Shown piece by piece: positions 18,331-35,242 of a stretch of DNA of 36,162 nt. The stretch comes from Victivallales bacterium (GTDB taxonomy: Bacteria; Verrucomicrobiota; Lentisphaeria; Victivallales; JAUVCU01): contig JAOZMT010000001.1 of NCBI GenBank assembly GCA_029934175.1, positions 85,286-121,447 on the forward strand, written 5' to 3'. Both the position numbers and the translations under genes were made by a program. The notes under the pieces are model-generated. The model was not told the origin of the DNA, made no database searches, and was given only the letters and a program-made list of their open reading frames with translations. Every line of letters starts with the position of its first letter. The first letter of the stretch is position 1.

Positions 18331-18516
18331 TTAATCTCCTTCCATTTTAATACAGTCATTCGGACAACTTTCCACACAATTGCCGCAACCCATACAATCA
18401 TCTGGAAATATTGCCTGAGCTTTATTTCCAACTAATGCCCAAACTCCATTAGGGCAAACTTCAACGCATTCACCACATCCCGTACAGCATTCATCTATGT
18501 GAATGATTTTTTGCAT
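18331..18516 (-). CDS. 2x[4Fe-4S] ferredoxin
   Basis: Two canonical cluster motifs, CTGCGECVEVCP and CMGCGNCVESCP, in 61 aa. Confidence 0.85.
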   Translation of the reverse strand: MQKIIHIDECCTGCGECVEVCPNGVWALVGNKAQAIFPDDCMGCGNCVESCPNDCIKMEGD

Positions 18517-18522
18517 ATTGCT

Positions 18523-18550
18523 AGTGTAAATGAAAAAATAAATTTGTCAA
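18523..18550 (-). promoter_or_regulatory. sigma70-like promoter for the ferredoxin operon (possibly a leaderless transcript)
   Basis: On the minus strand, TTGACA (18550-18545), a 16-nt spacer and TACACT (18528-18523). The predicted start site falls at or next to ATG 18516, and no ribosome-binding site is present. Confidence 0.35.
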
Positions 18551-18559
18551 GAGGCTAAA

Positions 18560-19106
18560 ATGTGAAAGTGCAGGCAGGCAGCGGGCGAAGAATTGCAAAA
18601 CTCCATTTTTTCATAATGTAAAATTTCTGTAAAGATTTTCTTCTGGAATTTACGAAAATGTAGATTTGACGCCGCTTGCGGCGCTTCTTGAACACCCTAA
18701 TTAGTTTTGGATTTAATTACTGAGTATGGAAAAAGCAAGCACTTGGGTATTTGTATAGAAAGCATAGTGTGGATTATCCTAAAAGACTCTGGAACTAGTT
18801 TTTACTAGCAGACCTTCTTATAGTTGTTCGTATGTGCACTGGTGTATGAATGTTTCGTACGGAATATTCGTTTCGAGTGATTTGTTTTTTGAAAGTTTAA
18901 CCAAAATAGCTCTGGTTGTTAAATTTTGACTGGAATGTTATTAGTTCTTCTGTCAGCCTATAAGTACAGGATGGACCCTATAAGACACTGTCGAATGCTT
19001 GGGACATAGTATGTGAATCTGAATGGTTTTATTCGTTCTCAGATGAACCACCTTTGGAATTGGCCTTGAAGGTCACTTGGTTCTCTTTCTGCCTCTTTTT
19101 TTTTCT
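18560..19106 (+). ncRNA. candidate large structured non-coding RNA (unclassified; strand tentative)
   Basis: - The track shows no ORF on either strand, and reading the plus strand I found only short ORFs (longest seen 27 aa).
- G+C is raised: hand counts give 27/60 at 18541-18600, 25/60 at 18661-18720 and 25/60 at 18961-19020.
- The plus strand is G+T-rich.
- Hairpins are present at 18670-18683 (GCCG-CUUG-CGGC), 18788-18812, 19017-19044 and 19045-19083.
- The last hairpin is followed 12 nt downstream by a T9 run at 19096-19104. Confidence 0.4.
19045..19104 (+). terminator. possible intrinsic terminator closing the candidate ncRNA
   Basis: GAACCA (19045-19050) pairs with TGGTTC (19078-19083), and CCTT pairs with AAGG inside the stem. 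Nine T residues follow at 19096-19104. The stem-to-T distance is longer than canonical. Confidence 0.3.
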
Positions 19107-19146
19107 TAGTTTCTTGGTATGGAGTGTTTTTATAAGCTTACAGATT

Positions 19147-19170
19147 AGATATTATATATTATATATATCT
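19147..19170. repeat. AT-rich near-perfect palindrome
   Basis: AGATAT (19147-19152) and ATATCT (19165-19170) flank an alternating (TA)n core that can form a cruciform. Confidence 0.6.
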
Positions 19171-19301
19171 ATAGCTAAAAGACCAAAACTAGTATTATAG
19201 ACTCTCTATAGTTTGTAGCTTATATTGTAGATACCGCATGTTAACAAAATTTGTAAAGTGTTTTGTCAAAGATTTTCTTAAAAACTATATTAAAAATTTA
19301 G

Positions 19302-19378
19302 TATTTAAATTTTAATATTTTAAATTCAACTATTTATTTTTCCCGATTTTTTCGCTATTTAAGTTTTAATATTTTAAA
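19302..19378. repeat. two copies of a 23-nt direct repeat (iteron-like)
   Basis: TATTTAAATTTTAATATTTTAAA (19302-19324) and TATTTAAGTTTTAATATTTTAAA (19356-19378) differ at 1 position. Their starts are 54 nt apart. Confidence 0.7.
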
Positions 19379-19495
19379 ATGAAATATTAAATTTTTATGG
19401 ATTTATTTTTTGACTTTAGTTTTACAAATTTTTAAAATTTTTATATAAAATTTTCTTGCTTTTCTTTTTACTTTAATTTGATTTTTTTCTTCTTG

Positions 19496-19524
19496 TTGAC
19501 ATAATAAAAAATTTATGTTATCCT
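19496..19524 (+). promoter_or_regulatory. rightward sigma70-like promoter P1 (extended -10)
   Basis: TTGACA (19496-19501), a 17-nt spacer, and TGtTATCCT with the -10 element at 19519-19524. Confidence 0.45.
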
Positions 19525-19551
19525 TGACAAAGAAATTTGATATGTTAAAAT
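19524..19551 (+). promoter_or_regulatory. rightward sigma70-like promoter P2 (extended -10)
   Basis: TTGACA (19524-19529), a 16-nt spacer, and TGtTAAAAT with the -10 element at 19546-19551. It is followed by an AAGAGG ribosome-binding site and ATG 19575. Confidence 0.55.
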
Positions 19552-19574
19552 AAAAAAAACTTTAAGAGGTTAAA

Positions 19575-20120
19575 ATGCAAGATTATCCAAATTTTTATTA
19601 TCATAATTATAAGGCTTATCAAATTTTAATTAATTATAGAGAATCTAAGTTAAAAAATATTTCAGATGTTTTTACGCCAAATTTGGTAATTGCCGTTCCT
19701 CAACCTAATTTGGCTTCAAATCCTTTTGAATGGGTTCTTAAGTATTTTCGTCCTAGTACTATTTTATATATCGCAGATTGGCTGACATTAAATCCCGATT
19801 TAGTAGGTACGTTTCCATTAAAGGATAAAAATAAGAAAATTGTTAATACATTATTTAAATTTGCTCAACGGTTCAAGACATCTTTCAATGTTGCCAAAAC
19901 ATTTGGTTATGTAGCAGTGGATAGTAGATTATGGAAATTTTTAAATGGAAAAAATAAAATTTCGTTGGATTATTATTTATGTTTAGTTTATAAACATAGG
20001 AAAAAATTTCATAATAATTATCGAGGAGTATATGCGCATTTTCTACGAAATCTTAATTTAGAAGATGAAGTTAGAAAGATAATGGAAGCTTATAAGGCTC
20101 ATTTGTTAAGAGATATTTAA
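19575..20120 (+). CDS. hypothetical early protein
   Basis: The first ORF after the tandem promoters, with an AAGAGG ribosome-binding site. No recognisable motifs. Confidence 0.5.
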   Translation: MQDYPNFYYHNYKAYQILINYRESKLKNISDVFTPNLVIAVPQPNLASNPFEWVLKYFRPSTILYIADWLTLNPDLVGTFPLKDKNKKIVNTLFKFAQRFKTSFNVAKTFGYVAVDSRLWKFLNGKNKISLDYYLCLVYKHRKKFHNNYRGVYAHFLRNLNLEDEVRKIMEAYKAHLLRDI

Positions 20121-30593: not shown

Positions 30594-30600
30594 TGATAAA

Positions 30601-30673
30601 GCGGGAATAGCTTAATTGGTAAAGCACCTGATTACCAGTCAGGAAGTTGCAGGTTCAAGTCCTGCTTCCCGCT
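30601..30673 (+). tRNA. tRNA-Gly with anticodon ACC
   Basis: The cloverleaf was folded by hand:
- Acceptor stem GCGGGAA/TTCCCGC.
- D-stem GCTT/AAGC.
- Anticodon stem CCTGA/TCAGG with loop TT-ACC-AG.
- T-stem GCAGG/CCTGC with loop TTCAAGT.
- Discriminator U73.
The 5' half is nearly identical to E. coli tRNA-Gly(GCC). No CCA is encoded. Confidence 0.85.
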
Positions 30674-30686
30674 TTGGAGTCTTGTT

Positions 30687-32860: not shown

Positions 32861-35242
32861 ATGATGTTTGAAAAATTTGTCCCTCATAAAATAGACAAAA
32901 TTTGTGAAAAGTGTCCTTTTCTAAAGAGTCCGTCTGTATTTCCTTCTGAAGATGAACTAAAAAAATTTAAAAAAAATCCACCAAAATTAATTATTATAGG
33001 TATTAATCCAGGTCAAAGTGAAATAGAGCAAGGAAAAGTTTTTGTTGGGAAATCAGGTGATTTTTTGTGGTCTGCTTTGTCATCTTATGGAATTACTAGG
33101 GAAAATTGTTTTGCTACTAATATGGTTCATTGTTTCGATAAAGAGATTAAAATTACTGTTCCAATAATAAAAAGATGTAAGTATTATCTTGATAAGGAAA
33201 TTGAAGGTATAAATTGTGATAGATTCCTTTTGTTAGGAAATGTACCAGTTCAAGGAATTCTAGGACTTACATTAACTGAAATTAAAGATAAAGTTGTATT
33301 AAAAGATAATAAATATTTTGCAATAATGGCACATCCAGCAGCTTATATGCGTAAGTATGGAAGTGATGCTAAATCAAGATTTATTTCTGATACTTTAAAG
33401 GTTTTAGATAGGTTATTTAATAATGATTTAAAAAAAGAAAAAATAAAATATAAGTTTTTTAAAGATGCTAATGAACTCATAAGAATATTGAAACAATTAG
33501 ATGAAGTTGCAATTGATTTGGAAACTTCATCAATTGAATGGCAATTCGGCGATATTAAATTATTAGGTGTTGGAAATGATAAGTTTGCGTTTGTAACTGA
33601 TAATGTAACTAAAGATTTAATTTTAGAATTATCTAAACATAAACTCATTGGTCATAATATTAAATTTGATTTAAAATGGATTTATGATAAATTTGGGATT
33701 TGGCTTCCTATACATGCAGATACACAATTGGCTGCTTATATAATAGATCAGAATAGAAAACATTATAGTTTGCAAAGTTTATGCTATGAATATGTTCCTG
33801 AATTAGTACATTATGGCGAAGATATAAAGGGAAGTAAAGATTGGAAGACCTATATAAATCCTGAATATAATGCAAGTGATGTTATAAAGACTGCTAGATT
33901 ATATAAAATTTTGAAAGATAAATTGAAAGATAAGGATTTTTTATGGAATTTTTTGATTAAAGCCGAACGAGCTTTGATGAAAATGGAGTATAAAGGTGTT
34001 TTGGTTGATACTAAATATTTGGATATACTTACAAAGAAATTTGAAAGAAAATTGCAAATATTAAAGAAAAAAATAGAAAGCATGACAGATGGTTTTTTGG
34101 ATAATGTTGATGTAAAGTTTTTGCCTCAGAATTTGTTACGTTTTTATAAGAAAAGATTAATTAATAAAACGCCTTTTAATCCAAGTTCCGATCATGATAT
34201 TAGATTATTGTTTTATGGAGTATATGGTTTATCTTATAAAGATTATAAATCATTTAAAAATGAAGTTTTATTAAAATTGGAAGATAAATATCCTATAGCT
34301 GGTTATATATCTAAATATAGAAAATTCGAAAAATTATTTTCCACATATGGAAAAGGTATTAAATCAAAATTAATAAATGGTGTAGCTTATACAAATTTTA
34401 ATTTAACTAGAACTATTACAGGAAGAACAAGTAGTGGCTCTGAACTAGGAAGGGAAGAACATAAATTCAACTTTCAAAATTTACCAAGAACAGGTGGCGT
34501 TAGGGAAATGATTGTTGCAAGGCCAAATAAATTATTTTTAGGTTCAGATTATTCTACAATTGAAGTATGTATTGCTGGTGCTTTATCCCGTGATGAAAAA
34601 TTAATTGAAATTTTGAAATCTGGAAAAGATGTACATACAATGATTGCTTCTACAATATTCAATATTCCTTATGAGAAAGTTCAAAAAGAACAGCGACAAT
34701 TTGCAAAATCTGTAACATTTGGTATATTATATGGTATGACATCTATTGGATTGGCTAAGAGATTGAATATTTCTGAAGCTGAAGCACAACAATTAATTGA
34801 TAGTTTTTTTGGACAATTTTCACAGATAAGAGAAACAATAGATAGATGTGTAAGTTTTGTAGAAAGAAATCATTATATTAATACACCTTTTGGAAGAATA
34901 AGAAAATTTGATAAATTTGATGAAGAAACAAAACGACAAGCTTTTAATACTGTAGTTCAATCTGTTGCGTCAGATATTATGTTGATTTCACTTGGTGATA
35001 TAAATGAAATTATCGAAGAATCTTTATTGGAAGAAAGAATTTACCCAGTCATAGAAGCACATGATGAAATTATTTTTGAAATAGATAATGATGAAAAATT
35101 TATAAGAGAAATGGAAGAATTTATAACTTATGAAATGACTAAGGGAATTAGAAAGAGACATGAACTTGTCGATAAGTTATTAGGGCCAATTGATTTAGCT
35201 GTGGAAACAAAACTTTCCAAAAGGTGGCAAAGCAAAGTTTAA
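32861..35242 (+). CDS. polA: family A DNA polymerase with 3'-5' exonuclease and an N-terminal family-4 UDG-like domain
   Basis: - UDG-like domain: CEKCPF, GINPGQSE...GKSGDFL and MAHPAAYM.
- Exonuclease domain: AIDLETSS, GHNIKFDL and YNASDV.
- Polymerase motifs: A is SDYSTIEV, B is RQFAKSVTFGILYG, C is EAHDEIIFE. Confidence 0.9.
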   Translation: MMFEKFVPHKIDKICEKCPFLKSPSVFPSEDELKKFKKNPPKLIIIGINPGQSEIEQGKVFVGKSGDFLWSALSSYGITRENCFATNMVHCFDKEIKITVPIIKRCKYYLDKEIEGINCDRFLLLGNVPVQGILGLTLTEIKDKVVLKDNKYFAIMAHPAAYMRKYGSDAKSRFISDTLKVLDRLFNNDLKKEKIKYKFFKDANELIRILKQLDEVAIDLETSSIEWQFGDIKLLGVGNDKFAFVTDNVTKDLILELSKHKLIGHNIKFDLKWIYDKFGIWLPIHADTQLAAYIIDQNRKHYSLQSLCYEYVPELVHYGEDIKGSKDWKTYINPEYNASDVIKTARLYKILKDKLKDKDFLWNFLIKAERALMKMEYKGVLVDTKYLDILTKKFERKLQILKKKIESMTDGFLDNVDVKFLPQNLLRFYKKRLINKTPFNPSSDHDIRLLFYGVYGLSYKDYKSFKNEVLLKLEDKYPIAGYISKYRKFEKLFSTYGKGIKSKLINGVAYTNFNLTRTITGRTSSGSELGREEHKFNFQNLPRTGGVREMIVARPNKLFLGSDYSTIEVCIAGALSRDEKLIEILKSGKDVHTMIASTIFNIPYEKVQKEQRQFAKSVTFGILYGMTSIGLAKRLNISEAEAQQLIDSFFGQFSQIRETIDRCVSFVERNHYINTPFGRIRKFDKFDEETKRQAFNTVVQSVASDIMLISLGDINEIIEESLLEERIYPVIEAHDEIIFEIDNDEKFIREMEEFITYEMTKGIRKRHELVDKLLGPIDLAVETKLSKRWQSKV

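Follow-up and report, generated by a model that had tools for sequence, protein, structure and literature searches.

A conserved non-coding island in an uncultured low-G+C phage, tentatively read as the gene for a weakly structured RNA

The DNA analyzed here (hereafter the window) is a stretch of 36,162 nucleotides (nt) on contig JAOZMT010000001.1, and it belongs to an uncultured low-G+C phage (28.5% G+C over the whole window). Between its two gene arms lies a gap of 1,058 nt (18517-19574), the left half of which forms an island of raised G+C (18560-19106). We found that this island is non-coding, under purifying selection and maintained in its G+C, and that it belongs to no described family. 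Because it is non-coding, conserved beyond drift and high in G+C and ends in a hairpin followed by a T-run, an RNA gene is our leading idea: it is quite possible, although short of probable, that ~18617-19104 is the gene for a weakly structured plus-strand RNA of ~0.5 kb that would act via primary-sequence motifs. We infer its transcription, its strand, its 5′ end and its mode of action from the sequence. A preliminary description of the window had suggested a large structured RNA of the ROOL/GOLLD kind; nothing in the island resembles an ornate RNA, and that reading is unsupported on present evidence from four lineages.

Relatives of the window were gathered by exact-protein look-ups and one metagenome scan. 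They form four lineages that share synteny and a similar gap length, and the identity of their islands to that of the window is as follows (L numbers denote contigs).
Window group (L001-L010, L020 and L026): 96-100%.
L021/L022 lineage (L021 and L022): 93-94.5%.
L012 group (L012, L013 and L015): 83%.
L025 group (L025, L024 and L017): ~58%, with an insertion of ~150 nt.
The source samples of the DNA are JGI 3300021493, 3300021502 and 3300016457, ENA ERZ272480xx-ERZ272483xx and SRR21545389.

Between the window and L012, identity at the four-fold degenerate (four-fold) sites of the flanking genes was 62.6% (n = 425), and between the window and L022 it was 73.7% (n = 414), whereas the island was 83.0% and 94.5% identical, respectively (Fisher P = 3e-12 and 1e-18). 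Conservation beyond neutral drift, on which the preliminary description had made its proposal depend, is therefore evident, and the island evolves two to five times slower than four-fold sites. Its G+C is 36.5%, and 34-37% across all lineages, L025 included, compared with 13-16% at the neutral (four-fold) sites, and the flux between GC and AT in the island is roughly balanced (40 versus 33). A decaying pseudogene or neutral spacer would explain the many stop codons and the lack of an open reading frame (ORF), a middle that is not alignable with the L025 lineage and assemblies that often break here. However, such a relic would be expected neither to evolve this slowly nor to hold its G+C so far above a neutral equilibrium of ~14%, and an ancient one would by now share the composition of the gap's right half. 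Slow evolution together with maintained G+C excludes this explanation in effect, and we leave it next to no chance.

Searches beyond these lineages returned nothing that could be added to them. No match to the segment was obtained by blastn among the INPHARED phages, nothing related was found in IMG/VR with three flanking proteins as queries, and protein and DNA-pattern searches of GTDB genomes gave no relatives. A homologue of a 343-amino acid (aa) protein (54% identity) was found only on short contigs without the upstream region. Three candidates were discarded: L011, from a terminase scan (29% identical), is unrelated in synteny; L019, from an IMG/VR DNA pattern, is a chance match within a gene; and the 16-mer CTTGAACACCCYDATT matched more than 120 contigs, of which all those inspected carry unrelated collagen-like Gly-X-Y repeat genes.

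The gap contains no ORF of at least 60 aa, as the preliminary description had stated, and the longest small ORF is 48 aa. Because TAA, TAG and TGA are each present in all six frames of the gap, recoding of a stop codon rescues no gene, and a recoded gene is ruled out. The small ORFs of the island are disrupted or frame-shifted in L021 or L012, and the substitutions fall on the three codon phases 28, 34 and 26 times, without three-base periodicity. Frame-shifting insertions and deletions (indels) and broken ORFs likewise rule out small conserved ORFs or a leader peptide in the G-rich tract at the left boundary.

The base counts reported earlier were exact or within one, with G+C of 27/60 at 18541-18600 and 25/60 at both 18661-18720 and 18961-19020; our recount of 18841-18900 gave 15 G versus 4 C, where about 16 versus 4 had been given. 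The G+C of the island (18560-19106) is 37.3% and that of the right half (19107-19574) 18.4%. All the sequence motifs that had been pointed out were also found.
18560, 18616 and 18658: ATG followed directly by TGA, TAA and TAG, respectively.
18670-18683: 5-base pair (bp) stem with a CTTG loop.
18788-18812: TCTG..CTAGT/ACTAG..CAGA.
19017-19044: ATCT/AGAT with an inner GAAT/ATTC.
19045-19083: GAACCA/TGGTTC, with a T9 run at 19096-19104.
18572-18581: AGGCAG twice, with CTGCCT at 19089-19094.
18957 and 18977: CCTATAAG, repeated.

What had been made of these motifs fared less well. The excess of ATG-stop pairs is above chance in the window (4 versus 0.68 in shuffles, P = 0.002) but is not kept in the relatives (2 in L012 and 1 in L025). 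The local helices have single-sequence z scores of -0.3 to -1.6, and 12-67 of 200 shuffles fold equally well, whereas the transfer RNA (tRNA) of the window, used as a control, gave z = -4.08 with 0 of 200 shuffles as good. The AGGCAG/CTGCCT helix that was thought to close the whole domain is missing in L021, L012 and L025. The G+T richness, which had been taken to favor G-U pairing, is real but equals the background plus-strand skew at four-fold sites of both arms: the island has a GC skew of +0.15 and an AT skew of -0.20, and the plus-strand GC skew at four-fold sites is +0.24 and +0.25 in the two arms, with T at or above A. Since this skew has the same plus-strand sign in both arms, the asymmetry goes with the DNA strand, whichever way the genes are transcribed.

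We then consider RNA structure, for which the four available lineages give covariation analysis low power. In a cmscan of the whole window at the gathering score, no match to ROOL, GOLLD, OLE, HEARO, raiA or any other Rfam 15 family was obtained except for the tRNA (30601-30673). A permissive cmscan of both strands of 18400-19650 (E <= 10) gave three chance matches (SNORD102, CRISPR-DR53 and 6A), all outside the island or far below the gathering score. The minimum free energy (MFE) of the plus strand was that of shuffled sequence in the window (z = -0.09), L012 (+0.57) and L025 (-0.44); the minus strand of the window reached -105 kcal/mol (z = -0.88). The RNAalifold energy of the alignment was also close to that of column-shuffled alignments (z = -0.45 for the plus strand and -1.48 for the minus strand), a 100-column scan of the alignment showed no convincingly structured window, and the 5′ blocks conserved across clades had no consensus structure (z = +0.63 and +0.74).

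The same outcome was obtained when the MFE structure of the window was taken as an independent prediction and the substitutions of L012 were scored against its stems. The 88 substitutions are not depleted in stems, 55 of them lying at paired sites where 65% of sites are paired, and covariation in the predicted helices, the lack of which the preliminary description had said would refute it, is not apparent: 24 pairs are kept and 22 broken, with two-sided changes keeping 3 and breaking 1. The structural claim fails on that count, with the low power of four lineages as a caveat. In the RNAalifold structure, nine pairs carry two-sided changes, compared with 4.0 ± 1.9 in shuffled alignments (0/45 reach 9). 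This excess is weak, insufficient as support and in part an artifact of the alignment. L012 is the sole source of most of the changes, and the alignment is poor in a block that contains several of them. They include three covarying pairs in a long-range 5-bp helix of 18564-18568 with 19085-19089, which joins an A-run with a T-run and loses one pair in L025.

A ROOL/GOLLD-like RNA, or a new ornate class, would suit the ~500-nt size, the phage context and the raised G+C, and the nine two-sided pairs with their long-range helix speak for it as far as four lineages allow. Against this stand the lack of an Rfam match even at E = 10, MFE z scores near 0 in three lineages, an alignment energy no better than shuffles, the stems broken in L012, the doubtful origin of the two-sided changes, cross-clade blocks without a consensus fold and a distance of 11.5 kb to the nearest tRNA. 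We consider an ornate RNA quite improbable. Nor does the island have the makeup of a CsrB/RsmZ-type sponge, as it contains 11 GGA in 490 nt versus 6.7 expected (z = 2.3) and AGGA is not enriched; such sponges present GGA in hairpin loops about once every 20-25 nt. The sequence GTACAGGATGG at 18964-18974 resembles RUACARGGAUGU, the high-affinity CsrA consensus from systematic evolution of ligands by exponential enrichment; there is only one such site, and it is weaker in L012 and missing from L025.

The following features were distinguished in the gap, in order from the left.
18523-18550, minus strand: P_left, the sigma-70-type promoter of the left operon, with TTGACA (18550-18545), a 16-nt spacer and TACACT (18528-18523), from the promoter scan.
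18551-18616, strand unspecified: conserved left-boundary block, with a Shine-Dalgarno (SD)-like AAGAGG and ATG-TGA (18553-18565), a (GGC)n-like G-rich tract whose length varies (18572-18588), and, at 18593-18611, TTGCAAAACTCCA with a T-run after it.
18617-18810, plus strand: 5′ third of the island, its conserved core, with the blocks TTCTTGAACACCC (18686-18698) and GGAAAAAGCAAGCACTTGGGTATTTGTATAGA (18727-18758) and the GC hairpin at 18670-18683.
18811-19044, plus strand: variable middle, 76-90% identical in L012 (50-nt windows).
19045-19104, plus strand: terminator-like 3′ end, with a hairpin (19045-19083), its inner stem (19061-19075), a U-rich tract and the T9 run (19096-19104).
19107-19238, strand unspecified: A+T-rich segment (18% G+C), with a (TA)n-rich run at ~19150-19170 and CTATAG palindromes.
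19239-19300, plus strand: conserved box with the first rightward promoter, TTGTCA (19263), 17 nt and TATATT (19291), from the promoter scan.
19410-19438, 19496-19524 and 19524-19551, plus strand: tandem rightward sigma-70-type promoters from the promoter scan, conserved in L012 and L025.

Homology of the island to L025 was colinear and was detected by nhmmer only over the first ~190 nt, where it is split by the ~150-nt insertion (E = 4e-4 and 3e-3). The block at 18727-18758 that is shared with L025 reads GGAAAAAGCAA.C..TG..TATTTGTA.AGA, and further shared blocks are GAAC.A..TTTGGAA.T (19045-19061) and TTCTCTTT.TG with a T-run. The GC hairpin at 18670-18683 shows no variation in the window clade and L012, and L025 lacks it. 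The variable middle has no detectable homology in the L025 lineage and no conserved ORF. The tetramer TGGA is modestly enriched in one orientation (8 versus 2.9 expected, z = 3.2; a post hoc observation). At the 3′ end of the island, a hairpin and a run of T7-T9 occur in all four lineages, and in L021 the stem is followed directly by T7, which is the canonical layout of an intrinsic terminator, with its stable G+C-rich hairpin and a U-run right behind it. A weak signal of consensus structure is confined to the 3′ hairpin of the island (z = -2.65 at 19020-19099 in the 100-column scan and -1.9 across clades); its single-sequence z is -0.34, and the promoter scan lists just the inner stem at 19061-19075.

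Based on these features, the candidate RNA would start near the boundary at 18600-18620 and end at the hairpin and U-run (19045-19104). It would work through the conserved blocks UUCUUGAACACCC, GGAAAAAGCAA...UAUUUGUA and GAAC.A..UUUGGAA.U, which are possible binding sites for a protein or another RNA. An RNA gene fits best because the G+C exceeds the coding average, the constraint is continuous over ~500 nt and the plus strand has a terminator-like end. RNA genes in A+T-rich genomes have G+C above the coding average, and the tRNA of the window has 48% G+C. The colinear blocks kept in the distant L025 despite the 150-nt insertion also argue for an RNA gene. Strong purifying selection on ~500 nt that have no detectable fold points to a function that a protein or another nucleic acid reads from the primary sequence.

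Several observations weigh against an RNA gene on the plus strand. No convincing promoter was found ahead of the island on that strand, either by the promoter scan or by manual inspection, although the intergenic promoters of this phage are plain (TTGACA, 16-17 nt, TAAAAT). The T9 run of the window lies 12 nt past the stem, which is not the arrangement of a canonical terminator, and the region is T-rich anyway. The G+T bias marks no RNA strand, because it is the look of unconstrained plus-strand sequence in this genome. Finally, no fold is supported thermodynamically or by covariation, and constraint at the RNA level is for this reason not distinguishable from constraint at the DNA level.

The opposite strand might be the one transcribed. 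An untranslated RNA that is A-rich, with C over G, would then arise from a leftward promoter in the A+T-rich half and serve as a long leader, an antisense RNA or a Rho-dependent insulator ahead of the left arm. A promoter-like site at 19530-19501 (TTGTCA, 18 nt, TATTAT), to which sites in L012 and L025 correspond, agrees with this proposal, and the minus-strand copy is C-rich, G-poor and poorly structured (z = -0.88), like a Rho loading region. However, a conserved promoter right at fdx already serves the left operon, the excess of C over G is no more than the strand skew of the genome as a whole, the conserved hairpin and T-run make a sensible terminator on the plus strand only, and substitutions break 30 stem pairs of the minus strand and keep 9. 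A minus-strand transcript is accordingly improbable.

The -35 hexamer of P_left is invariant across all lineages, and the ATG of fdx lies only 6-7 nt past the -10 hexamer, so that the messenger RNA is probably leaderless. In L024 (230-500), an extra 70-aa hydrophobic ORF with its own ribosome-binding site (RBS) is inserted between P_left and fdx; as the insertion lies downstream of the same promoter, P_left serves the operon. The island is not the 5′ untranslated region of the left operon, because it is upstream of P_left, which abuts the start of fdx. The left-boundary block is 87% identical in L025, and the island past 18616 ~58%. Its G-rich tract (18572-18588) varies in length by -1, +1 or +3 nt among near-identical copies, which suggests slippage; since these indels are not multiples of 3, the tract is non-coding.

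Three other roles for this block were rejected. The RBS-like sequence at 18553-18565, considered as antisense to the RBS ahead of the 181-aa gene, is a generic SD sequence and ATG, shows no covariation and is absent in L012. The sigma-54-like GG-N10-GC at 18583-18596 matches only in the invariant dinucleotides and was noticed post hoc. Within the window lineage, a possible G-quadruplex of the G-tract is not kept. A recombination breakpoint was observed at ~18612-18617 (L025:2469), rightwards of which L025 is the most distant lineage (its 181-aa protein is 62% identical). The L025 lineage is a mosaic, with a left arm 86% identical to the window, closer than that of L012, and a more distant right arm (72%).

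The right half of the gap holds the rightward promoters and the best-conserved DNA. In the A+T-rich segment, the TATATATTATATATAT run is kept even in L025, and the segment is a possible DNA-unwinding or bending element. The box at 19239-19300 is outside the island and surpasses the rest of the gap in conservation, with 98% identity in L012 (19250-19299) and ~83% identity to the L025 lineage (19239-19324). It contains the direct half-repeats TTTGTAAAG/TTTGTCAAAG and is probably the key early promoter and operator. Two motifs are shared between the left boundary and this box in the same order, ~640-700 nt apart, namely, AAATTTGT[CA]AAG (18540-18551 and 19247-19258) and the 12-mer AAAGATTTTCTT (18631-18642 and 19268-19279); these pairs could be paired protein sites or the relic of a duplication. 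The RBS and ATG of the 181-aa gene (19565-19577) are downstream of the tandem promoters.

This arrangement raises the possibility of a cis-acting DNA element, either a control or architectural region between divergent promoters or part of a replication origin together with the (TA)n segment. A control region of this kind could have operator arrays or loop between repeated sites, bound by the helix-turn-helix (HTH)-like proteins encoded on either side. The island is placed exactly between back-to-back promoter regions, beside a complete replication module, and adjoins the conserved A+T-rich (TA)n run. Its sequence is kept and its structure is not, no plus-strand promoter was found, and the two shared motifs (18540 with 19247 and 18631 with 19268), the one-sided TGGA enrichment and the weak HTH-type matches of both flanking genes all speak for such an element. 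By contrast, ~36% G+C, above the coding average, would be unusual for protein-binding DNA where the other intergenic regions have 20-31%, and operators would seldom need constraint that continues over ~500 bp. Neither iterons nor long repeats were found; DnaA-box-like sites occur at the level of chance (162 versus 153 ± 14 over the window), and the island has two that differ by a single mismatch; and four-fold sites show no leading/lagging switch of skew, as a bidirectional origin would give. We regard a DNA element as possible, yet on the unlikely side.

The genes around the gap belong to a phage that is apparently lytic, no integrase being seen among the proteins scanned, and whose genome is roughly 100 kb or more; contigs on which the flanking proteins are encoded are up to 94-121 kb long. 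On the minus strand, the left arm comprises a small ferredoxin gene (fdx, 18331-18516), genes for a 189-aa HTH-like protein, for NrdD with its activase and for a Mu-type large terminase, and others. On the plus strand, the right arm forms a full module for replication and recombination that opens with the 181-aa protein and includes phosphoesterases, a UvsX/RecA-like recombinase, an SbcCD-like nuclease, HU, a primase-helicase, a gp32-like single-stranded DNA-binding protein, a clamp-loader-like ATPase and PolA. The flanking proteins gave only weak HTH-type matches in searches that included NCBIfam and PDB sequences, and an AlphaFold model of the 181-aa protein (from a three-sequence alignment) was unusable, with a predicted local distance difference test score of 43.5. 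The family-A DNA polymerase (32861-35242, plus strand) was seen to carry an N-terminal domain of the uracil-DNA-glycosylase superfamily besides its 3′-5′ exonuclease domain. The only tRNA (30600-30674, plus strand) was assigned by ARAGORN to tRNA-Gly with the anticodon ACC and scored 71.5 bits with the Rfam tRNA model; bacterial tRNAs other than tRNA-Arg(ACG) rarely have A at position 34.

Many metagenomic contigs begin or end inside the gap at scattered positions (L007, L009, L014, L016, L017 and L003), and both L008 and L010 end at window position ~18907. These ends probably reflect assembly breakage caused by co-occurring variants and not a genome terminus.

Among known systems, the lytic vibriophage ICP1 produces a non-coding RNA of ~800 nt, its most abundant transcript, from an ORF-less gap of ~1 kb between gp139 and gp140, the function of which is unknown (PMC7567579). 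It serves as a precedent for an RNA gene in the island. In both cases a lytic phage that carries replication genes of its own has a long gap free of ORFs, the sizes are of a similar order, and neither has been assigned to ROOL or GOLLD. They differ in that the ICP1 transcript was seen by RNA sequencing (PMC7567579), whereas an RNA from the island is a prediction; moreover, no sequence relationship was found (no match in INPHARED), and the genomic neighbors are different. It is conceivable, although we think it rather unlikely, that the island founds a new class of large phage non-coding RNAs whose action requires no conserved fold. Such an RNA could, for example, be a scaffold or sponge offering short U/G-rich blocks (UYUGGA-type, UUCUUGAACACCC and GGAAAAAGCAA...UAUUUGUA) to a protein of the host or of the phage early in infection, in analogy to the ~800-nt RNA of ICP1.

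ROOL and GOLLD are large ornate RNAs of bacteria and prophages (PMC5737381, PMC12286853). Like them, the island is several hundred nt long, non-coding, carried by a phage and higher in G+C than its surroundings; unlike them, it has no Rfam match, no excess folding energy and no conserved helices. In addition, ROOL and GOLLD are frequent next to tRNAs and/or in prophages, whereas the island lies between divergent promoters, 11.5 kb from the only tRNA.

The c4 RNA of P1/P7, the CI RNA of P4 and the CB RNA of N15 are immunity or leader RNAs made from untranslated regions beside early promoters; they are ~70-90 nt long after processing and complementary to the leader or RBS of their targets. RNAs of this kind are mentioned in PMC7567579. 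The island resembles them as an untranslated region beside early promoters and regulator genes, and in a proposed action via short conserved blocks and not a large fold. However, those RNAs are short and target-complementary, whereas the island is ~0.5 kb, and its complementarity to the rest of the window is at chance level only (best 14 nt, E ~0.06).

Origins of phages that have their own replisome, such as oriF and oriG of T4 and the primary origin of T7, combine a promoter, its transcript and an A+T-rich unwinding element in a compact form, with the element directly after the promoter. The island is comparably placed beside a replication module and followed by A+T-rich (TA)n sequence, and its non-template strand is T-rich with G over C. 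It differs from these origins in that no promoter was found, in its length of ~500 bp and in the lack of a skew switch at the junction.

As the phage lineage is uncultured and is known from few metagenomes only, the practical impact of the island is limited for now. Long ORF-free gaps in lytic phages are common and poorly understood. Should the island prove to be transcribed, the small group of large phage RNAs would gain a sequence-defined example; otherwise, the island would be an unusually long, G+C-maintained cis-control region at the point where the replication arm meets the left arm with its nucleotide-metabolism, terminase and other genes.

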